Source: Blasia pusilla (lineage: Eukaryota). Taken from it: 64,000 nucleotides of DNA. The translations under genes were made by a program, and so were the position numbers. Below the pieces are notes generated by a model that was not told the origin of the DNA, ran no database searches, and was given only the letters and a program-made list of their open reading frames with translations. How positions within the stretch are numbered: position 1 is the stretch's first letter; each line of letters starts with the position of its first letter. Of the stretch, positions 1-60,449 are shown piece by piece. The stretch lies in NCBI GenBank assembly GCA_050084515.1, contig CM114271.1, positions 10,974,001-11,038,000 on the forward strand, given 5' to 3'.

Positions 1-730
1 GAATCAATTGAAGTACTTCTTCCGCCCAAATGAATCTTGCGCTTTCGGAAGTCTTATCCGCCGCCATTGAGCTCCCGGGAATACCCCACGATTTGGCCCA
101 TCGCCGCAGCACAAACCGCACTCAAGACGAAGTGGACAATCTTACAAGTGCGGTTTTTGACTCAGAGACGGGGAAGTTCGGAGCATGTTCAGCATTAGAG
201 ACCTTCGATTTTAAGTATTCAACCCAAGATTGATGTCAATATGTACCGGAGAAGGTGGATGATCTCAATCCATTATTTATGTTTGAGTCTAGAAATGGGG
301 TGAAGAGAAACAGAATGTGCAGGCCAACCAGTGGAGAGAGCAAAGCTTAATTGCATCACTCGGGAGGCAAAAATGGAGATCATCGCCACGAAAGATGTCT
401 TGAGTGGCAATGGAATAGGAAGGATGTATTGGGTCAGAACAACACAGTAAATTCAAGTGTCACAGGGTGTATGTGGTGCACATTTGTTGCTTTCCCACAT
501 GTTCATGTGATGACTTTGTCCAAAGAGAGACAAGTGGCAAAAGGTATTTCCCTTGTAAGCACATGTACTATGTGTTCTTTGGTAGTTTTAAGAGAGTCGG
601 AGGTAGGAGTAGGAATCCACCAACCAATTCTGTCCCTCAAAGAAGTGCAAAGTATTTTAAACAAACCACTTTGAGGATGCAAAATGAGGTTTTAGATTGT
701 ACTTTTATTTTTCCTCAACCTTCACTTTGA
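1..730 (+). pseudogene. C-terminal part of MULE transposase with SWIM zinc finger (frameshifted)
   Basis: ORF 467-730 contains CSCDDFVQRETSGKRYFPCKH (CxCx(n)CxH, SWIM). ORF 30-233 matches ORF 57809-58702 (TQDEVDNLTSA). Confidence 0.8.
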
Positions 731-1077
731 GCTTGAACTCTATTCAGCCCGGGGCAAATGATAGATTTTTTCCAGACCTTGGATGGAAAAAGTGATTGGT
801 TCCACACTTATGATTCCACTGATTTTTCAGTTTTCTAAATTTTGTGCAATTTGCAACTCGTCGGACTCACAGGGGTTGCCAAAATATGGAAGAGGAAAAA
901 AAAACTGTGGGATTGTTTAATAAATGAACAAAACAGTGCAAAAATATTCACACAAAAAGTTTCCTCTCTTCAACCCAACGGAAACTCTCTTAAAAAAAAA
1001 GTATCTATTTCGGTTGAAGGTAGTTTCCTCTCTCCTCTCTCCTCTCTTCCTCTCTTCCTCTCCTCTTACCGCACCTC
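1..1077 (+). mobile_element. Right-hand end of Mutator-like (MULE) DNA transposon, partial copy 1 (continues upstream of the window)
   Basis: Colinear with about 58200-59278 of the TSD-bounded copy. Ends in the same terminus ...CTCTTACCGCACCTC (1077). Confidence 0.9.
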
Positions 1078-1199
1078 GCGGGGGGCCTTCCGGTCCACAC
1101 CCCTATGGGGTACTAAATGCGGGGAGGGGGAGGGATGTCCGCTCGTTCGTGCATCCGCGCCTCTCTGTCCGTCCGCGCCCCTACTCCGCGCCCTAAACC

Positions 1200-4088: not shown

Positions 4089-7000
4089 GGGGTTGGTATT
4101 CTGGCAGGAGAGAGGAAGAGAGGAGAGGAAGAGAGGAGAGTCTCTCTTAAAAAAAAAAGGCCAAATCCGCCTCCTCTCTTCAAAACTTTTTGACATATTT
4201 GAAATTTTTGTTTGCTTTCAAATTCATGAAATCTTTAGAAGAGAGTAGGTAGTGGTCCACATTCGGGCCTAAAGAAACCTCCTTTTCCAAGGGGCGAAAA
4301 ACAAGTAGACATCATAAGACCACTACAAATATTTTTCCATCACTCTCCATGTGAGCCTAAGTTTCTTCACATTGCCTGTCTCAGTCTACAATAAGCTGTG
4401 CCTAGGGGTATTTTTGTTGGAGGACCATTGGCAAATAATTTGATCAGAAGTAGCAATCTCATCTCAATGAAAGGTTCAAATAAAGACTCTAACGATGGTT
4501 TTAACAGACTGCGGTGCTTTTCAAGCTTTAACTTCTCAGAATATTTGGTTGACATTATGGATTGACATCTCTTCTTGCAAAAGAAAGGCACAAGGAAATG
4601 TCTGTAAATGATTGTTGACTCTTCTTGCAGAAGGCATCAATACTCATCATACATTATGGAAAACATTTGGCAGCACAGTACCAAAATGAGAATTGTTGAG
4701 CTTCCCCCATTCCCAAGTGTGTCGAAGTGTTAATGTGTCATGAGACCTTACCCGGATGCGCATCGGGTACAATGCCAACCTCTCTTTTTGCAGGGATTGT
4801 TGCCTGCATCATGGCCTCCCCTGAATTGCCCCATAATGAATGGTGTCTGCTCAAGACCACCTTGTGAAATGTGAACACACGAGATGATAATTGAACCAAA
4901 AGATTGTTAGGTGTCTCGAGTAAAGAGGAACTGATGTCCCTTCATTCAGATCCTAAATCTGAGAAACCAAGAAGCTGCACCCCTCCCAACCCGTCGGAAT
5001 TTTACAGCTTGCAACTCTTGCAACCGGTTGGAATCAGATGGCTTGCACCCCTTGCAAGCAACCTCACCATAACAAAGGAAAGATTTTGAGAAGTGATTCC
5101 ATTCCATTCTGCACCCACGGTTGGGAATCCGAAATGGAAATCCAACAGGTAGTAGGAATCGAGCACGTCTTAGAGAAGAAAAGAAGCCTACGACTGGTTT
5201 GACGATAGTGGGGGAACAAGCCAAAAGTGAAGAAGCCCGCCACAATGCCTTAGAAGTTGGTCTCACAGAGAAAGAGTCCGATCACTCAAGCAGCCAACCT
5301 GTCGGAATCCGACAGCTTGCCTGGAAATGGTTAAAAAGTTGCAGTGGTCAAAAAGTGAAAAGTTGCAACCCATCGGAATCAGACGGGTTGCAAAATAAAC
5401 ATTCTCAGTAGCTAGACGAACACAATCGACAAGTCCAAAAAAAATATTCAGCAAACTTTTACAAACACCATTATCGTTTGAAAAAATCTTGTCCTTTATT
5501 ACATCTAAAGGAAGCTCAGAAATGTACATTTGATCTAGTCTATGATTTCTTCAGCCTCGTTATCTACAAATTTACTCCTAACTCTCCTAGGTTCCTGTAC
5601 AAAAGGAATGTCCTGGGATACACGTGGCTCCTCTGGCCGATTGTAGACAGGGATCGAAAATGTTGGCAAATTCGAGAGCCTTGGCCCCCCCTTAGGTATA
5701 CCATAACGGTCCCATATAACATGATTTGAGTCCCACCGCCTCCTCGGCAGCATATCTTGTACGCTTTGCAAGGTGACACCCATCCAGTATCAATATGTGC
5801 TCCGTCCTTGGAAACACCATCATGGCAATCCGACATGTAGTAGGAATCCAACACATCTTAGAGAAGAGAAGAAGCCTACGACTTTTTTGACGATACTAGG
5901 GGAAGGAGCCAAAGTGAAGAAACCCCCCAAAATGCCTCTAAAGTTGGACTTACAGGGAAAGAGTCCGATCACTCACTTAGCCAACCTGTCGGAATTCGAC
6001 AGGTTGCCTGGAAGTGGTTAAAAAGGTGTAGTGGTCAAAAAGTGAAAAGTTGCAACCTGTGGGAATCCGACGGGTTACAAAATAAACTGTCGGAGTTCAT
6101 AGACGATCACCATCGACAAGACCAAAAAAGATATTCAACAAACTTTTACAAACACCATCATCGTTCAAAAAAATCTTGTCCTTTATTACATTTGAAGGAA
6201 GCTCGGAACTGTACATTTGATCTATTCTATGAATTCTTCTGCCTCGTCATCAAATAAATCCCTACTCCAAAACGCTACAGTCAAGCTGGGTCCTTGAGTT
6301 CTTTGAACTCACTCGTGATCGTCCGAGAGCTCTTCCAGAATTACTGTCAGCCTTGCCCTCCCAATTTTTGGAATCGTGGGAAGTGACCATGGTGTCACTA
6401 CCAATGGTGGGTCTGGAACCGGAGCTCTCAGCTTCGGAGGAGAGTTGTACGCCCCAACTAGCCTGTCGTAATCTGCCTTTGCCTCTTTGCAAAGGTCAAA
6501 CAGTTCCTGCCTTCCCTCAAGGCAAAGAATGTTCTTCCCACTTTGCCAGGTGCCTCTGATACTCGCCTCTGAAAGGCCCACTTGGTCGAACACCAAGTCA
6601 CCCATCCTTGAGTAGAGCTTGATGAGGGTTTGCATCAGGGCTGGAGACTTTTCCCTTCCTTCAAGTAAGGGGGTACCGTCTTGCATGTAAATTCTTGGGG
6701 GGATTTTATAAACTATCTAAGCTACACCCATCGGAGCATGGATCCACTGGATCCAGAATCCTAAACACTTGGAAGTTGTGCTCGGACCGAACAAAGCAGT
6801 AAACATAGGAGTGGTCCATTTGTAAAGAAACAGGTTGGAAACAATGTCAGCAACAAGAAAGAGCTACTTGACTGCTGGTCTACTCTCAGTATGGTGACAC
6901 AATGTGCAACATGTCCCCAAAGAACTTCGCTTAACCCTCGATGGGTTGCATTCACCCAATGGAGCCTTGTGGTAAATTTGCAACCCGTCGCTTTCAGACG

Positions 7001-8239
7001 GATTGCAACACTGCAGTCACCAGCTCAAACGATCCGACAGGTTGCGTGCAGAGATGCAACCCGTTGGAGCAAGATAAATTATATATGGATTTAGAGCCCT
7101 TACTCCGATTTGACTCATCGCCAATCGGAGTGGGAACTCCTTCTTGATGACCCACGATTGCGCCGTCCTCCACTTCAGCGACCTCTTCACGCACTGCAGG
7201 TTGAAGAGCTCATCCTTGCTCCCTCTAGTCAAGACCAAGAAACAACCCGTGTCACTGAGATAAGCGTCTGCAAAGGAAAATAGGAGCGCGATCTAGTCAT
7301 AGGTGAGAGGGGCATTCCAGTCTAGGACACTATCAGACGGATTTTCATCCCACAAGCGCAACCAAGAGGGAAAATCAGCGAGGGAGATCCACCGCCACCT
7401 CCTCGACCTCCCCATGGACCGTCCAGGGAGCATGCCCGTTTCGTTGAAGCTTCCGTTCCAACATTGTCAATTTGTCGATGGTGGGTGTCGACTCTTCGGA
7501 ATTGAAACTTTGCAGCTCATCCAAAAGATTCGTGCAATGAATGATGACGCTTGTCCGGGTCGTTGTTTCTCTATGTCTTCCCAAGGATGATGGAGTGTAT
7601 TCCACATCTTGGTCTGCTCCCTAGGACAAACTTGGCGCCTCTCGCTTCCTCTTTTCCCGAGTCTGCGGTCGGCTTGTTGGGGTCTCTATTACCTCGGACT
7701 CTGTTGGAGTTTTCTTGGCGGAGGACGTGGTCTAGCCCTCTCTCCCCGGTCGCTCGGACGATTCCGCCTCTCGCCTTGAATTCTCAGCCTCTTTTTGGGA
7801 AGACTCGGCCTCGGAATTCTTCGATCCCCTTGCCTTTGCTTTCAGACCCGTTGTAGATTTGTCCTTGGCGGTGCAACCTTGGACACCAACTCCGCTGTCT
7901 TGAGGGCTTGCTCCTCCGCATCTCCTTCAAAAAAGTCTTCAGTCTGCACAAAATTTGGGATGTCGTCCCTACGTGCGGCCACTGCATCATACACCCGTCA
8001 AAGATTTTTGTCGGTGATATCCTCGGGGTCGTTGAAGTCCAGCCACATCGGGAAATTCTCCACCTCCCAGTCGGATATGCTTTGAGCCATCTCCATGTCG
8101 TACATGGAAAATGCCTCTCCATCAGGCGGAGAGGCCCACAATTTGCACGCTGCCGGCATTTTTCGCAAAGTACCTCCATTCTTACAATGAATGAGGTACC
8201 TGAACATCATCCGTTGGGCAGCTCTTTGTCGAGATGCAT
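4089..8239 (+). mobile_element. Left part of MULE element (partial copy 2), retaining the methyltransferase-like region
   Basis: Starts GGGGTTGGTATTCTGGCAGGAGAGAGG. 4089-5835 is colinear with 49615-51035 and 7722-8239 with about 51047-51565. Similarity stops at 8239, where a copia remnant begins. Contains an internal direct repeat of about 420 bp (5148-5565 / 5837-6255). Confidence 0.9.
6309..8239 (-). pseudogene. 3' part of MULE cargo gene: beta-class amino-(N4C/N6A) DNA methyltransferase-like domain
   Basis: Minus-strand reconstruction: VDL/LADFPS (7376-7365, position of the DPPY motif); FADAYLSDTGCFLVL; SWVIKKE; GT donor at 7103; degenerate acceptor at 6820, in phase; YVYCFVRS; then ORF 6309-6686 GREKSPALMQTLIKLYSRMGDLVFDQVGLSEASIRGTWQSGKNILCLE. 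This resembles the KP.L...I...S..GD.V.D.F.GSG.T..A....R..IG.E end of N6_N4 MTases. Confidence 0.6.
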
Positions 8240-25869: not shown

Positions 25870-28800
25870 TTGATTGTGGTCAAAAGGGTTGGCATGCCAC
25901 GGGAATCCTTCCCCAAGTTTGTGAGTTTTTCCGCTTCCTATGCATACAAGGAAGTCGGGCCTAGCTTGGTTTGGGATGACCAGGTGCAACGGTAGGTGGA
26001 GCCAAACACTAATGAGCGAGATTGAGCGATGGGATTCCCAAGGAGTAACAACTGTATCGTCACTATTATAGGCATTACGACATCATGTCTTGGGTCAGAC
26101 AATTGACCTAAACCGAGACCTAAACTACTTGATATGGATCATCAACTTAGGAGTAGCTAAGCAACATCAGATGAGGTTGTGATAAGTCACATCTATTGCA
26201 TTGGTGAGCTCCATGTCTATCGAGACAACTGAGTCAATGGCTGGGGCGAGATCCGAGGAGATCGATATACGAGGGATGATCGGGAGAGACACCCTTGGAC
26301 TTCATGGGATGTTTTGCAGAGATGTCGAGAGATGATAGCCAAAACATCAAGCATGGTTCCGGGGTACTACACGTGGAGGAGATGAGATTTTGGAGTTGGT
26401 TGTAGGGGAGTAGTTGAGTTTTGTTGTCCGAGATGGCATTGCACCATAGCAACCACTGATACTCGCCCTTATAGTCCTACCGTAGTCAAGATGGAGACTT
26501 GGGAGTCAGAGATGGGCCCTAAGTCGACAGGAGGAGAGCAGCGTTGGATATATCAGTTCGTTAGGAAGTATAGGACTTGGTTTATATTTAGTATGCATGA
26601 TTTGGGTACAATGAAGGGTCCAGGGATCTGCATAGAGTTGTGTAGCGACACGCTGATCTTCTGATGACCCTACAAGTACAATTATATGGAGAGGGCTTTG
26701 ATTCAGAGCATGAGCCAAGATTTGGTTGGAGCACGACTAGTGGAGATGTCGCATGGAGAGTATGCATCTGCCATTTTCATGCCCGCCAAGAAGGATTTGC
26801 ATGGAAACTAGACGGATAGGCGGATGTGTAGAGACTACCGACCTATCAATCGGCACATAAAATCCGATAGGTATGCTATGGCCATTCCTTATGAGATCTT
26901 TGATGTAATTGGGCATGCAAAGATCTTTAGTTTATTGGGTCTTTGAGTCAGATACCATCAAATGCCTATCAGATTGGAGGACAAGGAGAAGACGGCATTT
27001 TGGGGCATCGATCCTCACGGGAAGGATTGTTTGTACCAGTGGCAATTCTTACCATTTGGATTAAAGAACAACCTATAAGAGTTTCAGAGGGTGATGGATA
27101 GGATATTGGCAGGTCTGAATTTTGCTAGGAGTTATATTGATGACATCATAGTCTTTAGCACTACGGTTGAGGAGCATGAGCGAAATCAAGAGGAGGTGTT
27201 TTGATGATTGTAGTTACATGGGCTAAAGCTACAACCACACAAGGTGCAAGTGCAAGTTCTTCTACGACCAGATTGAGTACTTGAGTCACACGATGTACCC
27301 AGGTGGCCTTGGTGTCCAGAAGATGAAGGTAGAGGCTATCTCACATATTCCATGCCCTACAACTGTGAGTCGAGTTCATGCATTCATGGGATTGGCGAAC
27401 TTCTATCGACGATATGTCGAGGGTTTCAGTTTGATTGCAAAGCCACTAACCTTACTGATCAAGGTTAAAGAACAACTCAAGGACATCAGTGACACTCAAT
27501 GGATGAGCGAGAGAGAGCATTTCACCTACTCAAGGACAGGTTGACATTTGCGCCCATAGTGAGAAGACCGATCAGGGGGCGTCCTTTTCAACTGCATAAA
27601 GATTGGAGCATGTTGGGGTTTGGAGCGGTGCTTATCTAACATGAAGATAAGGGTAGAGAGTTTGTGGTGGCTTATGCTAGTCGCTCGAACAATGTTGTAG
27701 AGGAAATGTATAGCTCGTATGAGGGTGAGTGCTTGGCTGCAATGTGGATTGTCGTGCATTTTAGGTGTTATTTCACGAGGCAAGGCCACCTGTCGCCTCC
27801 TGAACATTTTGGCCACTTTTTTTCGATAAGGAGGCGACATGTGGCCAAGATATTCAGAAGGATGAAGTAGTCTTCAAGAACCTACCTACTGGCAACGTCG
27901 TAAGCACAGTGGGTGCTCAAGGGCGAGATTCGACCTACAGCGAGCGAGATGTTTCCAGTGGGAGGGGACACATGTGTTGCAAGTTTGGGAGGATGGTAGA
28001 GCACGTGTAGTGCCTCATATTTTGCAGAGACCACGTTTGGTGTAGCATACCCACGAGGAGTTGGTTCACTTTGGAGTAGAGTGGATGCACACCTTGCTCC
28101 AGATACTGTATTGGTGGCGAGGCATGCAGACTAACGTTCATCATTTTTTTTCGAGATTCATGGTGTGTGATCGAGTCCGGGCATCATTCAATGCTCTATC
28201 TCCATAGTCGCATTCACTTCCGATCATGGATTAGGTTATAGATGAAGTTTGGATTTTGCAAGACCTTTATCTTTGACGGAGTGCCAGAGTCATGATGTGT
28301 TGGTTATGGTTGAGCACTTCTCAAAGTGGATAGAGTTGGTTGCATTTCCTGACAAAGCGAATGAGGAAGTAGCATATGCCTTCCTAGATCGAGTGTTGAG
28401 TTATTATGGCGCACGACCTGAGATGTTGATAGACTAGGGTACAGAGTATCCAAGGGAGTTTTAGGCCTTGTATGATCAAGCGCTGATTGACCACCTCATC
28501 ACTTCATGAGATCATCCTGAGGCGGATGGACTAGCGAAGAGGGTTGTGCAGCCCATGATGAAGAGATGTTTACGCACCTAGGAGATTGGGACCTCCAATT
28601 TCCGTGTTTGGCGATAGGGTACAGATTCAGTAGGTAAGTATCCTTTGCGAGTTTCTCACCGTATTTTTGGCTTTATCTCCAAGAGCAAGATTTACCTATG
28701 GCCATTAATCGAGATGCTAATGAGGTGTTGAACCTCGATGATCCTGATGTACGGATGCGAGCATGTTATGAAAGGACTGAGTTGTTTCGTAGAGTGACGC

Positions 28801-47389: not shown

Positions 47390-49604
47390 ATACATCTGGG
47401 ACACATCCATCGTCCCCGAGGAACCCTAGTGAGAGGTGGCGTCAGACATGCCATATGCCAACCTCTCAAACATCCATCACAGACTAGCATCGTGGCCGCA
47501 CCACGGGCATAACCACACAATATAGAGGAGATACTAAGTAAGTTTTGATTCTAAGCTCGGATCTACTGTACCATCAATGTTAGGAAGGTGACATGGCGCA
47601 CAATTACGCACATGGTCCTTCCATACCATACCATCGCGTCCCTCCAGCAAGAGAACACCGGATGGCAAAACCTCACGCACTCTCAGGATAGTGAACCCTG
47701 TAGTCACATCCAACGTTGTCGGTGCCGTCTGCTGCAAGTAGACATAATCTCCCTGATGAAACCTCCGGATAGTTGGTCGATAACCACCACCCCAAATAGT
47801 CGCATACCTCAACGTATCCCAATGTTGCGCAATCGCCAAATTCTCGAACGCCATGGGCATCACTCTCCGAAACAACTCAGCCCTTTGAGAACATGCTCGC
47901 ATCCATACATCTGGGTCATCAAGATCCAGCACCTCACCAGCATCTCAACGAATGGCCGCAGGTAAATCTGGCTCTCAGCCATAAAGTAGCAAGTACGGTG
48001 AAAAAGACGCTAAGGATGCCTACCTGTTGAATCTATATCCCATCGCCAACCAGGGCAACTGAAGGTCCCAATCTCCTAGGTGACCTCTCTGCAAGCCATA
48101 CTTACGTAAACCCCTCTTCACCGTCTCCACAACTCTCTCCACTAATCCATCCGCCTCGAGATGATCTCGCGAATTCGTGCGATGGTCGATCTGCGCTTGA
48201 TCACACAAGGCCTAGAACTCACCGCGAAACTCAGTACCCTGGTCTGTCAGCACCTCTGTTGGTGCGCCATAATGACTCAGCACTTTGTCAAGGAAGGCAT
48301 AAGCTACTCCCTCACTCGCTTTGTCAAGCAATGCAACCAACTCGATCCACTTCGAGAAGTGCTCGACCATCACCAACACATAATGACTGTGACGCTCCGT
48401 CAAAGGAAAAGGTCTTGCAAAATCCAAACTCCATCTATACCCTAAGCCCATGATTGGTAATGGATGCAACTGTGGAGTCAGAGCTTTGAACGATGCTCAG
48501 ACCTGATCACACACCATGCACCTGATAGAAAACAAACTGTTGAATGTCAGTCTGCATGCCTCGCCACCAATACTGAATCTAGAGCAAGTTATACGTCCGC
48601 TTCACCCCTAAGTGACCCAACTCCTCGTAGGCATGCTGCACTAGTCGTGCTCTCTATAAAGGATGCGGCACTATGCGTACTCTGTCAACCTCCCAAACCC
48701 TCAAAACATGTGTCCCCTCCCAACGGAACCGTCTGGCCCGCTGTAGTGCTCGCAAGGCTGCCAGTACGAAGGTACTACAAGACTACTCCATCATCATGAA
48801 TATCTCGGCCATCTGTCGTCTCCTCACTGGCCTCGGGATCCATGGACTCTCCACTAGACCTCACCATCGAAGTCTCCACACTCTGGCTCTCCATAGCCAA
48901 CATGCCTAAATAGGCTGACGCGTGCCATCCTGGCACTGACTCCTCATCACTCTCTGCATGCCATCGAGCTCCACTCGCATCTCAGTGACTCAGGCATGGG
49001 TTACGACTCAACCCATATGCATCCTGGTTGAGCGTCCCAGGTCTATATACCACTTGAAAATCATACTCCTGTAACAACAGAGCCCATCTCGCAAGCTTCC
49101 TTGTAAGCTTGTCGGACTCCATCAACCACTTTAGTGGTTGATGATCAGTGATGATGGTAAAAGGGTTGCCGAATAAGTAACACCTGAAATACGACATCCC
49201 ACACTGCAGCCAAGCACTCACCCTCATACAAGCTCTACTTTTCCTCTGCAGCGTTATTCGAGCGGCTAGCGTAAGCCACCACGAAGCCTCTACCCTCATC
49301 ATCATGCTGGGTGAGCACTGCTCCAAGCCCCAACATGCTCCAATCTGTGTGCAATTGGAAAGGACGCCCCCTGATTGGTCTCCTCAAGATGGGCGCGGAC
49401 GTCAACATGTCCTTGAGCAATTGAAATGCTTGCTCTTGCTCATCCTCCCAGTGCCACTCGTGATCCACCCTGGTCAGCAAGGTCAGCGGCTTCGTAATCA
49501 AACTAAATCCCTTGACGTACCAATAGAAGTTCGCCAATCCCATGAATGCGCGAACACCGCTCACATCTGTAGGGCGTGGAATGCATGAGATGGCCTCTAC
49601 CTTT
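47390..49604 (-). pseudogene. Gypsy copy B RNase H, integrase and C-terminal PHD finger
   Basis: LHTDWS, TDHQPLKWL, RWALLLQEYDF; WSLDFA, VEHFSKWIE, TDQGTEF, GLVER; PHD LCG..TMLVCDGCLRGWHMACLTPPLTRVPRGRWMCPRC (47520-47393). Confidence 0.9.
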
Positions 49605-51049
49605 GTTTGCTGAAGGGGGCTGGTATTGTGGCATGAGAGAGAAAGAGAGGAGAGTCTCTCTTCAAAAAAAGGGGCCAAATCTGGCTCCTCTCTTCAAACT
49701 TTTTGACATATTTGAAATTTTGTTTTGCTTTCAAATTCATGAAATCTTTAGAAGAGAGTAGGTAGTGGTCCACATTTGGGCCTAAAGAAACCTCCTTTTT
49801 CCAGGGGGCAAAAAACAAGTAGACATCATAAGACCACTACAAACATTTTTCCATCACGCTCCATGTGAGCCTAAGTTTCTTCACATTGCCTATCTTAGTC
49901 TACAACAAGCTGTGCCCAGGGGTATTTTTGTTGGAGGACCACCCGGATGCGCATCGGTATGATGCCAACCTCTCTTTTTGCAGGGATTGTTGCGTGTATC
50001 ATGGCCTCCCCTGAATTGCCCCATAATGAATGGTGTCTGCTCAAGATCAACTTTGTGAAATGTGAACACACGAGACGATAATTGAACCAAAAGATTGTTA
50101 GATGTCTGGAGTAAAGAGGAACTAATGTCCCTTCATTCAGATCCTAAATCTGAGAAACCGAGAAGTTGCACCCCTCCCAGTACGTCAAAATTTTACAGGT
50201 TGCAACTCTTGCAACCCGTCGGAATCAGATGGCTTGCACCCCTTGCAATCAAGCTCCCCATAACAAAGGAAAGATTTTGAGAAGTGATTCCATTCCACCT
50301 TGCACCCACAAAAATCCAACAGGTTGGGAATCCAAAATGGCAATCCGAGAGGTAGTAGGAATCCAACACGTCTTAGAGAAGAAAAGAAGTCTATGACTGG
50401 TTTGACGATACTAGGGGAACGAGCAAAAAGTGAAGAAGCCCGCCACAATGCCTCAGAAGTTGGTCTCACAGGGAAAGAGTCCGATCACTCAAGCGACCAA
50501 CTGTCGAATCGACTGACTTGCCCGAAATGGTTAAAAAGTTGCAGTGGTCAAAAAGTGAAAAGTTGCAACCCGTCGAAATCAGACGGGTTGCAAAATAAGC
50601 ATTATGAGTAGCTAGACTAACACAATCGACAAGTCCAAAAAAATATTCAGCAAAATTTTACAAACACCATTATCATTTGAAAAATCTTGTCATTTATTAC
50701 ATTCGATGGAAGCTCGGAAATGTACATTTGATCTAGTCTATGATTTCTTCAGCCTCTTCATCTACAAATTTACTCCTAACTCTCCTAGGTTCATGTACAC
50801 AAGGAATGTCCTGGGATACAAGTGGCTCCTCTGGTCGATTGTAGACCGAGATAAAAAATGTTGGCGAATTCGAGAGCCTTGGCCCCCCCCTAGGTACACC
50901 ATAATGGTCCCATGTAACCTGATTTGAGTCCCACCGCCTTCCTCGGAAATATATCTTGTACGATCTGCAAGGTGACACCCATCTAGTATCAATATGTGCT
51001 CCGTCCTTGGAAACACCATCATGGCAATCCGACAGGTAATCCAATAGGA

Positions 51050-54000
51050 CCTGGTCCAACCCTCTCTCCCCGCTCGCCCGGACGATTCCGCCTCTCGCCT
51101 TAAATTCTCAGCCTTTTTTTAGGAAGACACGGCCTCGAAATTCTTCGATCCCCTCACCTTGGCTTTGAGACCCGTTGTAGATTTGTCCTTGGCGGTGACG
51201 ACCTTGGAGACCAACTCAAATGTCCTGAGGGCTTGCTCCTCCGCATCTCCTTCGAAAAAGTCTTCAGGCTGCACGAATTTGAGGATGTCGTCTCTACCTG
51301 CAGCCATTGCATCATAAACCCGTCAAACATTGTTATCGGTGATGTCCTCGGGGTCGTTGAAGTCCAGCCAGATCGGGAAATTCTCCACCTCCCAGTCGGA
51401 CATGCTTTGAGCCATCTCCATGTCGTACATGGAAAATGTCTCTCCATCAGGCGGCGAAGCCCACAATTTGCAGGCTGCTGGTATTTTTTTCCACGTACCT
51501 GCATTCTTACAATGGACGAGGTACCTGAACACCATGCGTTGGAAAGCTCTTTGTCAAGATGCATCGGCCGCCTGCTCCTAAAGATCTCACTTTTTCTTTG
51601 CGAAATTCCTTTTCTTCGCCTCTATTTATTCATCAAGGTCTGCCTGAGGGAGGATGTGATCCTTGAACATCGTCTTGAAGCCTGGGTTTTTTATGGGCTT
51701 ATCTCGGATGTCATCCAGCCAAAGTTTGAAATCTTCAACACTCTCCAGGTTTGCTTCCTCCGGAATTGGCTCTATTTTTTTGAGCTCTGCTTGGAGACCC
51801 ACGAGCACGGACTTCTCGAGAAGCCGCAACGCATCCAAGAATGACCATTCACGGAGCCAGTGGGAGATCACTGGATCAGAGAAACCCGGAGGATGGTGTG
51901 CCGCCCTCTTTTGGGCCTCTGTGCCCTCGAGACTGATTTTCATCAGTCGGATTCTCCTAAATTCTGAAATTCCAGACAAGGAAAATCTATGCACGCGGTC
52001 AAGAGACACTTTCTCCCCAATCCGAGCTTGCGGATCTTCATCCCTCTTCCGTTGGCGCTTGATTATCGCCTTCAGCTCCTTGTAGAAATCGGGGCCAAGT
52101 TCGGGGTTGAGAATGGCGATGTAGCGCTACATCTTGCTTGCACTGTACTTCGTAGATGCAGATATTGCAGCTTGTATGAACTTAGCACGCTCCGACGCAG
52201 ACACGTTCTCCCTCCGCTCCAGCTCCAATAAAGCGCTCTTCTTGGTGGCATGTATCTTCGACCAGCAAAGGATTGTCACGGCTGCATCTTGGTAAATAAA
52301 TATATTTTCCCAAGTCTTTTTTTTATTTGAGCCCCCTTCGCCAACATCTCATTTACAAGAGCGTCGCCCAAGAACCCCTTGTACTCTCTTGGGTGCGTCG
52401 TTAGCACTTTCTTCACCCGGTCGCAATCCTGGATCCAATGGTGGGTAACGTTCCCCTCGGATACAATCCTGCACATCCAAACACACTATAAGAATTTTTG
52501 CAAGCTACATGGGTTCCTGCAACTCGTCGGACTCCGACAGGTCACTACACCTCATGGTTGAAATGATAGCTAAGAGCTAAATATTGCAACCCATCGGAGT
52601 CCGGCGGATTTCATTTAGATTTGTGATTGCCTGGTTACATCTCGTCGGACTCCGACGGGTTGTCAAATGATTTGTATTCAGAGAGTGGTTTCCGCGTAAA
52701 AAGTGAACATATCAACCCGTCAGAGTCCGACAGGTTGCGCAATTTCAAGTAAAGCTACAATTTGACGCCAAAAATCAAGCTCCCCTACTCCGATCACCTA
52801 CCCGTGGCGGCGAATGCAACCCGTCAAAGTCCGACGAGTTGCTTTTGGCCAAAACATCCTTAAAACAGCGGCCAATCAAGCAACTCGTTGGACTCCGACG
52901 AGTTGCTTTTAGGCATCCGATGTTTTGGTACCACTAGTTAAACAACTCATCGGAGTATGACGGTTTGCAGCAATCAAAATAAAGGAAGAGGAAACTTACG
53001 TGTTCATGGCATGCATGGCCATTTCCAACGTCGCCATGTGATGAGGGTATGGATTTAGCACGATTGCCTTCACGCAAAAATGCGCCTCCAATGAATTTGG
53101 GCGCTCCTGTGCAAACAGGGTTCACGCCATCAACCTGTGGTTTCCATCCCAGATGAAGAAATAGAGGTTCCCATCCAGCTGAATTCCGTCCCCTCAACCA
53201 CTATTATGAATTCCTGATCTCTCATCCTCCACAATGTGTCGAGCGCTTCCAAGTCCTCCTCCGTCACCAGCGCTTGGGTTCCATGTTGATCGTAAGGCTG
53301 AACATAGAACGGAGGGAAGCTGTCGACGTAGGATGTTGTCGCTGCCGACTGTTTCAGCTTCGCAATATCCTCGTCAGACTAAATTTCGCGGACATACTCC
53401 ATTGTCTGCAATCGGAAAAGTGGAATTCTCGGGGCGTTCTAGCCCTCCATCACTGCCATCTGCTTTACAACCTGTCACAACGCGGACAAAGTCAATAAAC
53501 TACACTCAATTGCTAATGAATTGCAATATAGGCCTTCACATAACTCAAAGATCAAAGACTGTCTCTTATACGCTCAAAGATTGGGTTGGTATCTTGGCCC
53601 GCCAACTGCTCTAGGACAACATCTGGCAAGTCCACTGGAAACTCGTCGATCCGATAGAGGTTGATTTCTTCCGTCGGGCTCAGAGATGAGGAAGACTGCT
53701 CTCTTGCTTCTTCAAATATGTCCACAATCTCCACGCTGGCGGTCCTCATGACCTCATCGTCCGTCACTTGAACTTCGGCCGTTTCCTCAGCCGATTTTAT
53801 ATTGATTGTGTCCCCAGACTTCATCGGGGATATTTCTTGCATCTCAACACTTTTGGTTGGACGGGTCGGGCTTTCTTCAATGGCAATCATTTTTTCCCTT
53901 CGAGCTTTTTCCAATTCTGCTCTCCTCACTGACGCGTCTAGACACTTCTTTTCACGCTTCTCCTTGGCGATCCTTTTCTTCAAGGCCTGCAACGCCTCAG

Positions 54001-54250
54001 CCTCTGCGTTCTATTTTTCAAGCGCCTCCTTAACACGTTTTGCAAGAAGCTCATCCCTGTGCATTTCCGCTTCCCTTTCGCGCTCCTCGATCTCTTGCTG
54101 CCTTATCTCATTGGCCAAACGAGGCCCTTGAGATGGTGACAAAGGAGTCATGGACTTGGGATTGAAGCTCCCAACCTTCCTTGCTTGAGATATTTTCCTC
54201 GTCATTGTTCCCGAAAATGCCTCCTCCTCTACAACAAAATTACTTTCTGT
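51050..54250 (-). pseudogene. MULE cargo gene: coiled-coil N-terminus, ParB/Srx-like domain, helical region (MTase part deleted in this copy)
   Basis: Exon 53471-53000 translates, with stops and one frameshift, as RIPLFRLQTMEYVREI*SDEDIAKLKQS..PFYVQP..YFFIWDGNHRLMA*..HFCVKAIVL..AMHAMNT. DGNHR is at 53148-53134. The GT-AG intron 52999-52469 joins in phase to IVSEGNVTHHW. It continues through ORFs 51626-52009, 51323-51535 and 51119-51307. Confidence 0.75.
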
Positions 54251-54528
54251 GCACGATGATTCGCCTCGATGAGTCTCCTTGATGAGTCGCTCGGATCATT
54301 TCGCGATGAGTCGCTCGAATCGTCTCGCGATGAGTCATCTTGTAAAGCGCCTCTTTGTATCTGGTCTGCTGCTGCGCTGAAGAGCAATCGAGATCGCGAA
54401 AGAAAAAACCGGAAATGAGCAAACCCCCGCCTATTTTTACTTTTCGAGCTGTTGAGCTGACCGTTGGGTCGCATCATCATTCCGACAGCGACGTGTCGGC
54501 CGTAATGCAAGTTTGCACATGAAAACCA

Positions 54529-54965
54529 CCAACTCAACGGTCTCCGACGGGTTGGAGGCATCTGTCCTCCTCGGGTTAAAAAGCCGAGCTATCCTGGCAA
54601 TCCGTCGGAGTCCGACAGGTTGTGCGCCTTCGCCGTCTTGGGGCAAGAACGCGAGGTACCCGCGCAACCCATCGGAGACCGGGGGGTTGCACGCTTTCCT
54701 TGTCTTGGGATAACAAGGTGGGGTACCCGCACAACTCCTCGGAGGCCAACGGGTTGCACGCTTCCTTCATGTAAGCGTTAGAAGGCGAGGCACTTGCGCA
54801 ACTGGTCAGAGGCCGACGGGTTGCACGCTTCCCTCATCTTGGGGTAATAGGCGAGGTACCTAGGCAACCCATCGATTACTGACAGGTTGCACTCTTTTCT
54901 ATCCCTCGGGTAACAATGTGACAACAGATAGTTCCGAGGCAACCTCTTGCAATCTGACGGGTCAC
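54529..54965. repeat. Array of seven 27-bp palindromes at about 67-bp period between the divergent MULE genes
   Basis: Copies at 54529, 54597, 54664, 54731, 54798, 54864 and 54939. Consensus GCAACCCGTCGGAnTCCGACGGGTTGC. Confidence 0.85.
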
Positions 54966-55312
54966 AAGGTCTACCCTGAGTTAGACAATACCGTAACAGT
55001 CCCCATCGATTAGTTGAGATAATCTAGCCAGTGATTGCAGACCAGAAAGTATGGAATCTCTTACCTCTAGCAAATGGTCAATACAGAGTTTACGGCTTGC
55101 CTCTGAATTCCTAAGTTTCCCAAGTAGACGGTCGAGAATTTCCTAGTCCACCGATCTCTACGTTTGCAACTCCTAGCTCATTAGATCCGGCATCGACTCC
55201 AACTTCACACGTTTGTAATAATGTTGTACTTCCTGAAGATATTCCGGATGTCGTCAACCTCAGTGGATCTGTCGGACACCAACCGGGCCCTCTATGCGCC
55301 TACTCGTTCCTC

Positions 55313-58300
55313 TTGCGAGTATTAGGAAATAGTTTGCTATTGTCTCTAGCGTTGAAAATTTTCAAGCACATTCTTGTTGACGAGCTACCGCCCACGTACA
55401 ATGGTAATTTCATTTTTGAGATGCCTCCACTTGCTGCTCCTGCTCAAAAGAAAGATGGAGGACGCTTGAAGGGTATGGACAGAAAGTCTGATTGTCATCG
55501 ATGGTGCAGACTTCAACGGACTAGTGCTTCAATTCCAGATGGTCCTTGGATTGTCTCTCGCCGCCAATGGGTTGGAGCCTTGGAGTGTAGAAGTCCAGCA
55601 TGCCCGTATCTAGAGCGCAACGAGCGGGTCAATACGTCACAATTTCCTCCCAAGAATGCACAAACTCTATATGAGGTCGGTGCCACCATACCGCGGGGAG
55701 GCCATCCATGTCCTCATTGTGAGACATCCCCTTTCTACGTTGGAGCGTGTCCTGCATACATATTTTTCATTGTCCATGACTTGGGTTCCACGTTAGAGTA
55801 CACAAGGCTGGCAATTCATGTTGGCTCCCACACTCATCTTGTGACCGATGCAATTCTGAGACACATCAAGGAGGATGTGGCGAAGAAAGTGGCCGAGGTC
55901 TAAAGAAAATCTCCGGGTTCAAAGCCTAGAGTGATTAAGTTAACAACAACATCACAAATTTGTGAACAACTCCTTAGAATCGCTGGACAAGGCGAGATCA
56001 CGGCTATTGAGGAGAAACAACTCTGGGAAAATCTCGCTAATCCTGAATGCTTCCGGAATTCGCTGCGTCAAATACGGGTACTGGATGGAAATACGGCCAA
56101 AATGGATGCCATTGCTAGAATCAAGGCCAACTCTAGATTTCCATCCATTCAGAGATGGCAGTTCATGGGCGAGGGAGGCAAAGGATCCAGGGCCTATGTC
56201 TTCAAATTGTCAACGACAGGTCCGTCGAGTGGCCTCGATCTTATAGATCGGATGAGGGAAGGGGAAGATCTTTACGGCAGCTGGGTAAGTTTGATATTTG
56301 CTACAGAGTCCTGAACGAATGGCTGACAATGGGTGCTCATGTTTATGACCGTGTGAAGAAGGGACTCAAAACTATATTTGTTTGTGAAGTAAAAGCAGAA
56401 GACGTTGGCAGTTTGAACATGTGTTGGTTACTCTTATTGGAGGTGGTGAAGGAAAACAAAAGGCCACCTTCGGAAATTTATGGGTTCATGGCGGACAATG
56501 CACAATCTCGGTGGTTTGCTATCAGGGAAGTGTTTTGGGGTGAGGAGGTTCAACCGGAGAGAGAAAGGTGGGATGCTTTCCATTGGCAACAGTATGTGAC
56601 CCGGTACATCAAATCTTGCATCAAGGAGAATAAGAGGACGGAGCATGTCATTCTACTCCAACGTTGCAAGGACAGAAAAAGCTTGAAACAGGCCATGGAA
56701 TGCCAAGAAGAAATTCATGGGTGGTGGAGGAAACATGCGATTGAGGGGAAGTACAAAGAGTTATGCTCTTGGCTGAGTTGGTGGATTGTATGAATGAGAA
56801 AATGGGGAAACTTCATGCGGGAGGTGAGTTCACTAATTTGTCTCGCTGAAAATTGTTTGAAGAGTTGTAGCTAAAGTTGAGAAGCGTGGGCACTATAGGG
56901 ATTTCAAACCGAAGAAACCAAGCAATTTGTCGGATGCGACAGGTTCCTGAGTGTTCAACTCGTCGCTTAGCGACAGGTTGCCTAAGTGTGCAACCAGTCG
57001 AAAACCGACGGGTTGCAAGTCGCATGGCCAAATTTACTTGCAACCCGTCAGAATCGGACGGGTTGACGGGTTGCTTGAGAGTGCAACTAGTGGGAAAATG
57101 ATGGGTTGACGGGTTGCCTGAGTGTGCAACCAGTCGGAAAAGGACGGGTTGCAAGTCGCATGGCCAAATTTACTTGCAACCCGTCGGAATCGGAGGGGTT
57201 GCACTAGGTGGTTCTTGGGTGTTGCAACACGTTAGGAACCGAGAGGTCGTAGAGTTGTTCATGGGATGCCTTGGCCTTGCAACCCATCTGGTTCCGACAT
57301 GTATCTTATTTCTTTGACTTCTAAGCTATTTTCGTTCCCTTCTCACATTGGGGTCGTTGCGGGCATTGAACATTCATGAAAATGCCCTCTGCCCCAACAC
57401 AAGTGGAGCAGAAAGTGTTCATTCCTCCTAGAGGTCGTCACATGCATGCCAAAGAATTTCATTTGTGGAGGTATGCCAACAAGACCAGGCAAGAGCAATG
57501 CTACAGTCTGCACCATCCCATATCTTCCTACAAAAGGCATAACAAAAGGAAGGGGGCCTTCGATCTACGAGCTCTATGTCAGGGCGGTTGTGAGATCTGG
57601 TGATGAGAAACTCTATGTGGAAGCCTTCAACCGGTGCGTAGCAAGAACTCCCCTCGACCAAGACGTACAAATTGGTGGGGATATTCGTGGGCGCGTTTCA
57701 AGACGTCCCATATAGACGGTGGTAGAGCAGTCCGAGCGAGACTCGTAGAGACTAGATAAGTATCTTGACTTCAGGCAGGTGAAGAGGTAGCATCGAGGAA
57801 CGAATCTGATGATTGATTTGGATGAGGAAATTACGCCGCCCCGGTATTCGAGGACCCCGGATTTCTCCCAAATCCGTGATGGAGTAACTTCTTCAAAATC
57901 AATGAATGTTTTATTTCAAAAGCCCTCTTTTGGTGGAAGATCGCAACATCCGGTGGCTGGGGTGGTTCAACAATATGGGATTTCGGTCATGGAGGTAGAT
58001 TGCAACCTGAAACGGTGGCATATATCTCGGATCAACCCTGGACGTGGATCCACTTGCAAGGCAAGATCTGATGGCATTAGGAGAGCATGCGACACTTTCC
58101 TAAATAAGAACTGTACAAGGACTGGACGACCACTGCCTCGGTTTTGGGGACTCAAACCCTTTGATCGTTTCACAAGGACTAGGGATCAATTGAAGCACTT
58201 CTTCTACCCAAATAAATCTTGCGCTTTCTGCAAGACTTATCTGGTTGCCATTGGAGCTCCGGGGAATACCCCCACAATTTGGCCCATTACCGGAGGTATG

Positions 58301-58870
58301 AATTGCACTCAAGACGAAGTGGACAATCTTACAAGTGCCAGTTTCAGACTCGTTGACGGAGAAAGTTCAGAGCATGTTCGTATTACAAAGACCTTCGCAT
58401 TTCGTAATCAACCCAAGATTGATGTCAACATGTACCCGGAGAAGGTGGATGATCTCAATCCACTATTTCTGTTTGAGTCTAGAAATGGGGTGAAGAGAAA
58501 CAGAATGTGTAGGCCAACGGTGGAGAGAGCAAAGCGAATTGCATTAGCTCAAGAGGCAAAAATGGAGATCATTGCCACAAAAGATGTCCACAATGGCAAT
58601 GGAATAGGAAGGATATATTTGGGTCATGAACAACACTGTAAATTCAAGTGTCACAGAGGTGTATGTGGTGTACATCTGTTGCTTTCCCACATGTGCATGT
58701 GATGACTTTGTCCAAAGAGAGACAAGTGGCAAAAGGTATTTCCCTTGCAAGCACATGTACTATGTGTTGCTTGTAGCTTTAAGAGAGTCGAAGGTAGGAG
58801 TATGAATCCACCAACCAATTCTCTCCCTCAAAGAAGTGCAAAGTTTTCTCAACAAACCACTCCGAGGATG
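55313..58870 (+). pseudogene. MULE-family DDE transposase with GCM/WRKY-like Zn domain and SWIM finger (start approximate)
   Basis: N-terminal DCHRW..TS..GALECRSPACP..CPHC..CPA..IHVGSHTH. Core FDICYRV, GFMADNAQSRWFAIREVF and DAFHWQQ. Intron donor at 56824. PNTSGAESVHSS (E at 57411). C-terminal CACDDF..PCKH SWIM (about 58693-58757). Confidence 0.8.
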
Positions 58871-59288
58871 CAAAATGAGGTTTTAGATTGTACTTTCATT
58901 TTCCAAAACCTTCACTTTGAGCTTGAACTCTATTCAGCCCAAGGCAAATGATAGATTTTTTCCAGACCTTGGATGGAAAAAGTGATTGGTTCCACACTTA
59001 TGATTCTACTGATTTTTTAGTTTTCTAAATTTTGTGCAAATTGCAACTCGTCGGACTCACATGGGTTGCTAAAATGTGGAAGAGGAAAACAAATTTGTGG
59101 GAGTGCTTAAGAATTGAGAAGAAAAATGCAAAAAAAATCACACAAAAAGTTTCCTCTCTTCAATCCAACGGAAACTCTCTTCAAATCATAGGAAACTCTC
59201 TTAAAAAAAAGTAGAAGATAGTTGTAGATAGTTTCCTCTCTCCTATCTTCCTCTCTTCCTCTCCTCTTACCGCACCTCGTCTGTTGAA

Positions 59289-60132
59289 CACCAAGGCCCC
59301 CTTGGTATATCGAATGACCCAAATACTCAATCTGGTCATAGAAGCACTTGCACTTGCCTGGATGTAGCTTCAGCCCATGTAATTGCAATTGTCGAAACAC
59401 CTCCTCTAGATGTTGCTCATGCTCCTCAACTGTGGCGCTAAAGACTACGATGTCATCAACATAACACCTAGCAAAATCCAGACCAGCCAAGATCCTATCC
59501 ATGACCCTCTGAAACTCAGCTGGGATGTTCTTTAACCCAAATGGTAAGAACCGCCATTGGTACAAACAATCCTTCCCGTGAGGATCAATGCCCCAAAATG
59601 TCGTCTTCTGCCTGTCCTCCAATCTGACAGGCAACTAATGGTATCTGGCTCGCAAATCCAATGAATTGGAAACCTTTGCAAGACCAATCGCATCAAAGAT
59701 CTCCTGAGGGATGGGCATGGCATACCTATTGGACTTCGTCTGCCTATTGATAGGTCGGTAATCCCCACACATCTGCCTATCCGTCCAGTAACCATGCACA
59801 TCCTTCTTGGCGGGCATGACAATGGCAGATACATACTTCCTATGCGACATCTCCACTAGTCTTGCTCCAACCAAGTCCTGGCTCCTACTCTGAATCAGAG
59901 CCCTCTCCACATCACTGTACCTATAGCGTCGTCGGAAGATCGGCATATCACTTGATAACTCAATGCGGATCCCCAGTCCCTTCAGCGTATCCAAATCCTC
60001 CATGCTAAACGCAAAGCAACTCCTATAACTCCGGAGGAACTGATGTATTCGACGCCGCTCCCCTCCTATCAACTTAGGGCCCATATTTGGCTCCCAAGTC
60101 TCCATCGTGACTACGGTAGGACTCTCCGGCAC
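59289..60132 (-). pseudogene. Gypsy copy B reverse transcriptase
   Basis: MCGDYRPIN, LDLRARYH, LPFGLKNIPAEFQRVMD, YVDDIVVFS, YLGH. Confidence 0.95.
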
Positions 60133-60449
60133 GGATATCAGTGGTTGCTATGGTGCAATCCCGTCTCGAACAACAACACTTGACCGCTCTCCTACAGCCA
60201 ACTGCAAACTCTGATCTCCTCCACATGCAGTGCCTGGAACCACGCTCGATGTGGTGGCTATAATCTCTTGGCGTACCTGCAAAACATCCCAAGAAGTCCA
60301 AGGGTGTTTCTCTCAATCTCCCTTGGTGTGTCGATCTCCTCGGGTCTCGTCAGCGTTGGGCTCCACAAACCTCAGCCACTGCCTCCACCGTCTTGGTAGG
60401 CATGGGGCTCACCAACGCAACCGTTGTGATCTGTCGCGATCTCATCTGA

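Follow-up and report, generated by a model that had tools for sequence, protein, structure and literature searches.

What would lead a bryophyte transposon to carry a gene whose product resembles bacterial and phage DNA methylases, and what could such a product act upon? The question is raised by a transposable element at 49615..59278 of a 64,000-nucleotide stretch of the Blasia pusilla genome (GenBank assembly GCA_050084515.1, contig CM114271.1, positions 10,974,001 to 11,038,000 of the forward strand), hereafter the window, in whose coordinates all positions are given. An initial annotation made from the sequence alone had described a Mutator-like transposon carrying a spliced cargo gene in which a ParB/Sulfiredoxin (Srx) signature precedes an amino-methyltransferase domain. 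The interpretation we favor, and hold to be rather likely as a whole, is that the element is a dead copy of a high-copy, autonomous Mutator-like family with two head-to-head genes, and that the accessory protein encoded by the minus-strand gene would recognize palindromes on its own element and alter or shield the chromatin there.

A transposon inserted into a gypsy-type retroelement

The boundaries of the element are defined by a paralogous empty site. Copy 1 (49615..59278), which has full ends, an internal deletion, and two broken genes, splits a gypsy-type reverse transcriptase frame found on the minus strand on both sides. A second gypsy copy, at 26599-27770, is unsplit. By BLAST, 49178-49603 aligns with 27770-27326 and 59288-59997 with 27315-26599, such that 27326 is the counterpart of position 49603 and 27315 that of 59288; side-by-side reading places the uninterrupted target site, with both flanks joined, at 27315..27326 on the minus strand. 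The target-site duplication is 10 bp long, reading GTTTGCTGAA on the left (49605..49614) and GTCTGTTGAA on the right (59279..59288), identical at 8 of 10 positions with both differences being C/T. Duplications of about 8-11 bp are characteristic of Mutator-like elements. An alignment of four ends, in which the left ends of copies 1 and 2 pair with the reverse complement of the right ends of copies 1 and 3, reveals terminal inverted repeats of about 50 bp. The left repeat (49615..49665, plus strand) is GA-rich and imperfect (GGGGCTGGTATT...GAGAGGAAGAGAGG), and its counterpart lies at 59225..59278 on the minus strand.

The left end of copy 1 has a second instance at 4089-4427, and 3-1078 repeats its right end. 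The former belongs to copy 2 (4089..8239; 4123-8239 by BLAST), which comprises the left end and the 3′ part of the accessory gene and ends abruptly at 8239; the latter is copy 3 (3..1078), a right end whose remainder lies beyond the window start. Divergence among the copies is about 6-12% by BLAST, with 169 transitions and 128 transversions over 3,027 aligned columns. Copy 2 overlaps copy 1 (7722-8239 against 51046-51564, 89% identical) and has a further 1.9 kb (5839-7722), with methylase-like exons among it, that is missing from copy 1. The empty site, the 10-bp duplication, and the termini common to three copies bear out the proposal of an element bounded by target-site duplications. The partial copy reported at 4089-8239 is, as tblastn indicates, a collinear continuation of the same gene into methylase-like exons. 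The two gypsy-type copies themselves (49178-49603 plus 59288-60147, and 26599-27770) are 79-83% identical.

An accessory gene shared with Riccia

The minus-strand gene can be traced through copies 1 and 2. In copy 1, exon 1 (53000..54205) has a putative start at 54205, a low-complexity N-terminus, stops, and one frameshift. It matches residues 174-321 of P0033, a 1207-aa Riccia protein, at E 3e-14, and the region with ParB-like motifs (IPLFRL..VREI..DIAKLK, FFIWDGNHRLMA) falls within it at 53438-53000. Intron 1 (52469..52999) runs from GTAAGT to CAG and is filled with copies of a palindrome described below. Exon 2 (51119..52468) encodes a predicted all-helical middle domain with KYHHP, RAKRxVxRF, and SMY motifs, interrupted by a frameshift near 52320 and six stops. 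Splicing 52999 to 52469 restores both the frame and the homology, yielding AMHAMNT|IVSEGNVTHHWIQD where Riccia has AMHNLNASSHATVQYDWIQE, and this intron stands as first proposed. Copy 2 supplies, also on the minus strand, an exon for the N-terminal half of the methylase-like domain (7101..7398; VAVDLPR at 7398-7378, then GCFLVL; P0002 residues 391-485, E 1e-11) and the last exon (6309..6716), which contains EKSPALMQTLIKLYSRMGDLVFDQVGLSEAS and a decayed motif I region (6602-6561) and closes with a stop at 6309. The second predicted splice, 7103/6820, held in part: the donor at 7103 is GT, but the acceptor at 6821-6820 reads AA in copy 2, and a shift of 1-2 nt is required to enter the homologous frame MDHSYVYCFVRSEHNF, which resembles Riccia YHSKVEVFCKASHNF.

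A relative search with the 410-residue read-through of 51119-52348 as the query retrieved 29 proteins at E <=0.001 (best 8e-19), of which 21 are from Riccia sorocarpa and one is from Riccia fluitans; none of the 29 is a Marchantia protein. With the methylase-like fragment P0034 as the query, 26 more relatives were retrieved, all from R. sorocarpa. Riccia has at least 45 gene models of the accessory family, spread over many chromosomes. Its proteins and those of the window species have the same three-part layout at an identity of only about 30%. P0033 contains, in order, IPLCRL...WDGNHRLITW, a long middle part, and ADCLYLDLPTGL...GDIVIDFAGGWGAT, whereas P0006 and P0035 hold the first two parts and the first half of the third in one model. 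At five Riccia loci, the halves are annotated as adjacent gene models (R1sor_001606/001605, 020455/020454, 024500/024501, 021159/021160, and 023878/023879). By tblastn, P0033 aligns along copy 1 in three segments (residues 174-321 on 53432-53002, 324-361 on 52461-52348, and 369-712 on 52330-51209) and along copy 2 in two (599-733 on 8225-7830 and 1095-1180 on 6689-6408, E 1e-4), with residues 391-485 of P0002 on 7382-7101. Judged by the single P0033 model, the five split pairs, and the collinear alignments, the accessory gene is real, and its WDGNHR, middle, and methylase-like parts form one gene, as had been claimed. Its location inside a DNA transposon bounded by target-site duplications and terminal inverted repeats is seen for two copies in the window. 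The chimeric Riccia gene models contain no Mutator-like element (MULE) domain, and scans of metagenomes returned nothing linking the accessory gene to a transposase elsewhere.

The C-terminal methylase-like domain

Profile and structural comparisons identify the C-terminal domain as a relative of the beta-class amino-methyltransferases, with bacterial and phage enzymes as the nearest matches. Of 27 aligned members, 14 matched PF01555 at E <=0.01 (best 1.9e-7), mainly over the C-terminal third, and PF01555 is present as a precomputed annotation in 4 of 26; the last exon of copy 2, the window's own representative, scored a sub-threshold 14.1 bits (E 0.048). PHROG DNA-methyltransferase families were matched at 2.4e-7 (phrog_3008) and 9e-7, and PADLOC MTase_II at 1e-4 over residues 1000-1166. 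An hhalign comparison with three phage and plasmid methylases gave 96.5% and E 8e-10 across 54 columns around motif I. Foldseek, run on a model of P0034, returned 31 PDB matches at E up to 0.001, topped by M1.HpyAVI (3e-7) and CcrM and also including MboIIA, BceJIV, RsrI, rotifer N4CMT (rank 25, E 4.9e-4), and PvuII, with METTL3-METTL14 and MTA1 chains lower. The motif order in the Riccia sequences is the permuted IV...I (DLPTG ... FAGGWGAT). Motif I, which contacts S-adenosylmethionine (SAM) in such domains, reads F-A-G-G-W-G-A in Riccia and has decayed to Q-V-G-L-S-E-A in copy 2. Sequence searches extended less far: PDB sequences yielded only a non-significant putative modification methylase (E 2.2), and tblastn of P0033 against phages recovered the motif I stretch only (E 0.03-1).

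Two observations temper the assignment of an active enzyme. AlphaFold2 modeled P0034 with low confidence (predicted local distance difference test [pLDDT] 53.6), and motif IV departs from the canonical (D/N/S)-P-P-(Y/F/W): the Riccia proteins show D-[LM]-P-[ST]-G, P0002 has MDLPTH, and the window copy has VDLPR. Given that the two phage methylases compared carry DIPY at motif IV, the second position is variable, and what truly sets the motif apart is the missing aromatic residue. Catalytic activity is thus doubtful as far as the motifs tell. Because the canonical motif IV is absent, we term the domain methylase-like rather than a member enzyme. The annotated methyltransferase is therefore upheld in its beta-class homology, fold match, and motif order, but not in its catalytic tetrapeptide. 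The UniRef name "Trimethylguanosine synthase," attached to P0031, P0033, P0034, and others, was rejected, as the motif order and all the fold and profile matches point to beta-class DNA amino-methyltransferases.

The N-terminal region and the helical middle domain

Whether the N-terminal region is a ParB/Srx domain was less readily decided. The annotated peptide FFIWDGNHRLMA is present at 53160-53125 on the minus strand, with IPLFRLQTMEYVREI*SDEDIAKLK upstream in another frame, and the N-terminal motifs have been kept in both Riccia and the window copy (39% identity across 76 residues, E about 1e-14). By reading, the plasmid ParB layout VPLASL..NVR...SELAESI...GGRRLAAL finds a parallel in Riccia IPLCRL..RVR...TEALKKSF...WDGNHRLITW, with a 40-aa insert ahead of WDGNHR relative to the ParB arrangement.

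Profile, fold, and feature comparisons lend no support to a ParB/Srx identity. Four Riccia homologues gave no match to Pfam ParB_N (PF02195) at E up to 10, and the window pieces gave no ParB/Srx match in Pfam. The accessory N-terminus matched nothing in NCBIfam, PHROGs, or PADLOC, and a PDB profile search of the region returned no ParB/Srx match. With hhalign, the motifs fell in register against three ParB proteins, but at a probability of 0.25% and E 0.24, and a comparison with one ParB gave no support; the ParB profile was thin, with a plasmid search contributing only relatives at least 90% identical and a phage search only two. The AlphaFold2 model is of low confidence over the ParB-like region (pLDDT 30-79). 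For the 906-aa model, Foldseek reached Noc in the PDB only at E 2.7, and a ParB fold drew no support from BFVD or from the VIA wide search, whose list was filled by another domain. ESM features placed the N-terminal region nearest to fungal DUF3723 (0.96; 187/256 shared; 10/30 matches), with ParB_N only at rank 27 (0.91). PF12520 (DUF3723) gave no Pfam match at E up to 10, and we take the DUF3723 likeness as a lead only. What survives of the ParB/Srx signature is the peptide and the ordered motifs; the label denotes a motif pattern, and identity with either family is unproven.

The middle domain is predicted with far greater assurance. In the model of a Riccia homologue, residues about 185-580 of P0035 (window 52468-51119) are all-helical with a pLDDT of about 90, and KYHHP, RAKRxVxRF, SMYP, and WExxNCPW are conserved motifs. 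Foldseek found no significant match in the PDB or among the viral models of BFVD, and VIA-align found none in a list filled by another domain. The analysis thereby flags a conserved, confidently predicted helical domain for which no match was found among solved or viral structures.

Palindrome arrays confined to the element

A pattern search of the 64-kb window (CAACCCGTC-N7-GACGGGTTG, up to 3 mismatches) gave 26 palindrome matches where 0.01 were expected, and all 26 fall within the three copies of the element, which occupy about 15 of the 64 kb. The consensus is a 25-bp palindrome with a 12+1+12 arrangement, CAACCCGTCGGA-N-TCCGACGGGTTG. Every match is non-coding (50212-59068, 4987-7005, and 854-878). 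In copy 1, palindromes are subterminal on the left (50212..50590) and on the right (59044..59068), form a tandem array of about 67-bp units between the divergent gene starts (54530..54920), and cluster in the putative transposase intron (56956..57201); others lie in accessory intron 1 and in the second intron of copy 2. Each non-coding segment of the element, namely the subtermini, the intron of either gene, and the promoter region that the two genes share, is thus furnished with the palindrome. The palindrome-bearing units are tandemly duplicated as 67-bp and 136-bp repeats. By manual count, 13 of the 26 have GANTC, the site of CcrM-type beta-class methylases, at the center. Because the arrays are element-specific, the idea that the element marks itself has a concrete candidate target.

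The clusters also coincide with joints in DNA reads. These include 50568>56989, 52538>54597, and 52905>54597, as well as the opposite-strand joints 52856/52907 and 56989/57171. Such deletions, inversions, and back-joins of other copies suggest recombination, or deletion derivatives, at the repeats.

The plus-strand gene, a probable transposase

The plus-strand gene (55115..58805) begins with a zinc-finger-like N-terminus and contains three frameshifts private to copy 1. By reading, a D..D..CxxH-like transposase core lies at 56299-56793, with the layout D...D...(C/D)xxH visible in the core piece 56137-56793, and a putative intron bearing palindromes follows at about 56794-57370. A CxC...CxH finger pattern is visible at the C-terminus, where 58683..58775 matches the SWIM-type zinc finger PF04434 below threshold (E 0.036, 14 bits against a cutoff of 19.6). 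C-terminal SWIM fingers are common, though not universal, in Mutator-like elements. In ESM features, the core is nearest to MULE/ZSWIM RNaseH-like clusters (0.93), and its ten best family-bearing matches all belong to one clan. Conventional searches did not back the assignment: in Pfam, the six open reading frame pieces of the decayed copy 1 gave no MULE or Transposase_mut match (PF10551, PF00872), the only rows being weak, chance-level ones and the SWIM finger. Two word-based protein searches and a sequence search of the PDB recovered no relatives of the transposase. From the ESM features, the sub-threshold finger, and the 10-bp duplication, we file the element as Mutator-like, a placement we regard as quite probable. 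The "MULE transposase" of the initial annotation thus agrees with the duplication length, the ESM features, and the weak finger, but is without a significant profile match.

Copy number, decay, and transcription

We matched reads of one DNA run carrying the same species label, about 1/100 of which was read, to the element at a likeness of >=88%. Summed depth was about 110-1,360 over the whole element. Because these depths derive from about 1/100 of the run, the family must have hundreds of copies or more, an exact number being one that would need a single-copy control.

Copy 1 is a dead but real and ordinary-looking member of this unusual transposon family. Its accessory gene has about ten stops or frameshifts in addition to a 1.9-kb deletion of the methylase-like exons. 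BLAST places the private deletion point at 51038..51046, and 498 DNA reads continue into unlike sequence, resembling copy 2, just before 51046. Among family reads, 150 of 339 have an extra G after 53171, which undoes the exon 1 frameshift of copy 1. In the transposase gene, an added C after 56289 (941/1089) and after 57529 (1007/1165) and one base fewer at 58618 (711/937) restore the frame in 76-86% of family reads, so that the frameshifts there are private to copy 1. That copy 1 was recently active is ruled out by its stops, frameshifts, and deletion.

Three RNA runs with the same species label contributed 285, 421, and 314 reads matched to the element. No read in the three runs was >=99% like copy 1, and the reads therefore derive from other copies. 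First mates lie on the plus strand over 50584-51229 and 52522-53167 and on the minus strand over most of 55106-58981. Transcription of other copies is thus low and strand-consistent, in a pattern that fits two divergent genes. Neither 52999/52469 nor 7103/6820 is among the 15 RNA joints listed of 261, which, with the lack of reads nearly identical to copy 1, counts against the favored interpretation; splicing is accordingly supported by homology. Separately, each run has 37-51 RNA reads over a 36-nt stretch at 53378-53414, antisense to the accessory gene, and in every run the same unrelated sequence flanks the stretch on both sides; the probable cause is a short similarity to a transcript expressed elsewhere.

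Relation to known systems

The published systems below are compared by description, from the available portions of each report. Few transposons are known with genes acting on their own chromatin; the example that has been worked out is VANC, and a recent candidate is the set of PAG genes in red algae. VANC targets form tandem repeats, and VANC21 sits on the non-coding regions of VANDAL21 (Hosaka et al., PMC5735166). The present element resembles the VANDAL/VANC system in being a Mutator-like element with an extra gene and short repeated motifs in its own non-coding DNA; it differs in that VANC is not reported, in the portion of that article at hand, as methylase-like or ParB-like (PMC5735166). 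In red algae, Plavaka elements carry PAG2 (PF01555 plus SET) and PAG3 (a ParB-like N-terminus plus a 2-oxoglutarate [2OG] oxygenase) (bioRxiv 10.1101/2025.02.11.637652). Inverted-repeat arrays beside PAG3 were proposed there as self-binding sites, and homologues occur on Mutator elements of Chondrus crispus (10.1101/2025.02.11.637652). The parallel is close: eukaryotic cut-and-paste transposons with a PF01555-type methylase, a ParB-like region, and adjoining arrays. PAG2 and PAG3, however, are separate genes with SET and 2OG oxygenase partners on mostly CACTA-type elements of red algae, whereas here a single polypeptide links both ends by way of a large helical domain, the carrier is a Mutator-like element, and the lineage has liverworts as its named relatives. 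An accessory gene inside the element and element-specific repeated motifs in non-coding DNA are both present, as in VANC- and PAG-type systems.

With the beta-class methyltransferases of bacteria and phages (M1.HpyAVI, CcrM, M.RsrI, and M.PvuII; PF01555), the C-terminal domain shares the fold, the IV-before-I order, the SAM motif, and a (Q/E)K(P/S)P..L...LI..(F/Y)(T/S)..GD.V.D...G segment. It departs from them in D-[LM]-P-[ST]-G, in its introns, and in its residence on a eukaryotic transposon. Fusions of ParB with a methylase are typical of phages, and the stand-alone phage and plasmid methylases compared here have no ParB part. Relative to ParB-fused methyltransferases, the accessory protein has a helical domain and linker of about 600 aa between the N-terminal region and the methylase-like domain. 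Marchantia MpDN4MT1 and rotifer N4CMT (PDB 8s9m) are likewise bacterial-type beta-class domains in eukaryotes, the former from a liverwort. MpDN4MT1, however, is a host gene expressed in sperm with a canonical TSPPY (bioRxiv 10.1101/2021.02.12.428880), in contrast to the D-[LM]-P-[ST]-G transposon gene described here. DUF3723 (PF12520) is a conserved auxiliary gene of the giant Starship transposons of fungi (bioRxiv 10.1101/2021.12.13.472469). It resembles the accessory gene as a mobile-element auxiliary and as the source of the ESM clusters nearest to the N-terminal region; it differs in its tyrosine recombinase carrier and in belonging to another kingdom.

The survey of Iyer, Zhang, and Aravind describes ParB-helix-turn-helix-fused Dam-type enzymes in chlorophytes, chytrids, and a haptophyte clade, and the available portion of it lists no fused architecture like this one (PMC4738411). 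Our literature search found no description of the fused architecture or of such a bryophyte element, with supplementary tables being a place where relevant entries might stand. The initial annotation had known of no description of this arrangement; it is less new than that implied, since the combination of a PF01555 methylase gene with a ParB-like gene next to inverted-repeat arrays has been published for Plavaka and Mutator elements of red algae (10.1101/2025.02.11.637652).

A proposed role and its alternatives

In the mechanism we propose, an element that inserted into a gypsy retroelement would encode its transposase on the plus strand, and the spliced minus-strand gene would give an accessory protein of about 1,100-1,200 aa in four parts: a disordered N-terminus, a ParB-N-like motif region, a helical domain of ~400 aa, and a methylase-like C-terminus. 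This protein may recognize the palindrome arrays on its own element and alter or shield the chromatin state there; it would do so as an enzyme with an unusual SAM-dependent activity or, alternatively, as a pseudo-enzyme that binds SAM. The logic would be one of VANC-like or PAG2/PAG3-like self-targeting; palindrome binding, any enzymatic activity, and any silencing effect are what we infer. A more specific version, in which a ParB-like clamp or loader, a helical DNA-binding domain, and a SAM-binding module are fused into a self-recognition system of prokaryotic logic that loads on parS-like palindrome arrays to mark or shield the element against host silencing, with an N-terminal module shared with Starship DUF3723, strikes us as a speculative extension that is probably wrong in at least some part.

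The alternatives bear on different links of this proposal. It is possible, if on the unlikely side, that the palindromes are unrelated to the accessory protein and are either transposase-binding subterminal repeats that spread inward or hairpin repeats expanding by slippage or recombination. Such an origin would agree with the read joints, inversions, and deletions that begin or end at the clusters, with the 67-bp and 136-bp tandem duplication, and with the subterminal copies at both ends; yet introns and the promoter region common to both genes, all remote from the ends, hold most of the palindromes, whose layout resembles that described for VANC targets (PMC5735166) and red-algal PAG3 arrays. 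The two readings do not exclude each other. Rather unlikely, in our judgment, is that the protein is a catalytically dead structural factor that aids transposition or maintenance, as other second genes of Mutator elements do, without base modification. All Riccia members and the window (VDLPR) lack the aromatic residue in a D-[LM]-P-[ST]-G-type motif IV, and mobile elements with inactive methylase domains have been described, as in DIRS1 (PMC4738411); at the same time, no part of the domain is better conserved than the SAM motif I region, and annotated phage adenine methylases vary the second position of motif IV (DIPY), which argues the other way.

A third account would make the gene a host gene captured passively, in the style of Pack-MULEs, that does nothing for the element. 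Capture of host fragments is common among Mutator-like elements, and copy 1 is decayed, but we consider this very improbable: a three-part protein is kept between the window species and Riccia at ~30% identity, the gene is multi-copy in both (at least 45 Riccia models and hundreds of copies here), and it has its own promoter side and a read depth that is a large share of that of the transposase. The element could also belong to another DDE superfamily and have been misread because of its accessory gene, a mistake with a precedent in the Plavaka elements of red algae, initially classed as MULEs for the same reason (bioRxiv 10.1101/2025.02.11.637652). The lack of a significant MULE or Transposase_mut profile match would suit this explanation. 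Against it, the ESM query was the transposase core itself and pointed to MULE/ZSWIM, the 10-bp duplication fits Mutator, and a SWIM-like CxC...CxH finger stands at the C-terminus. CACTA-type elements, by comparison, have target duplications of about 3 bp. We rate membership in a different superfamily as improbable.

Should recognition of its own palindromes by the accessory protein hold, the element would add a family in another lineage to the self-acting transposons, with a defined protein, a candidate target in the 25-bp palindrome, and very many copies; this combination makes self-recognition and self-modification directly testable. For at least 45 models of Riccia sorocarpa annotated as "hypothetical protein," the homology also offers a lead at the level of function. 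If truly shared with DUF3723, the N-terminal module would represent a widespread, unrecognized "element identity" module of eukaryotic mobile DNA.

Rearranged fragments near copies 2 and 3

Two further pieces of the element occur in the first part of the window. Between copies 3 and 2, 2355-2493 is an inverted fragment of the left terminal region, 76% identical to it. Within copy 2, a 430-bp subterminal segment (5822-6251, equivalent to 50337-50762 of copy 1) is repeated beside its first instance.

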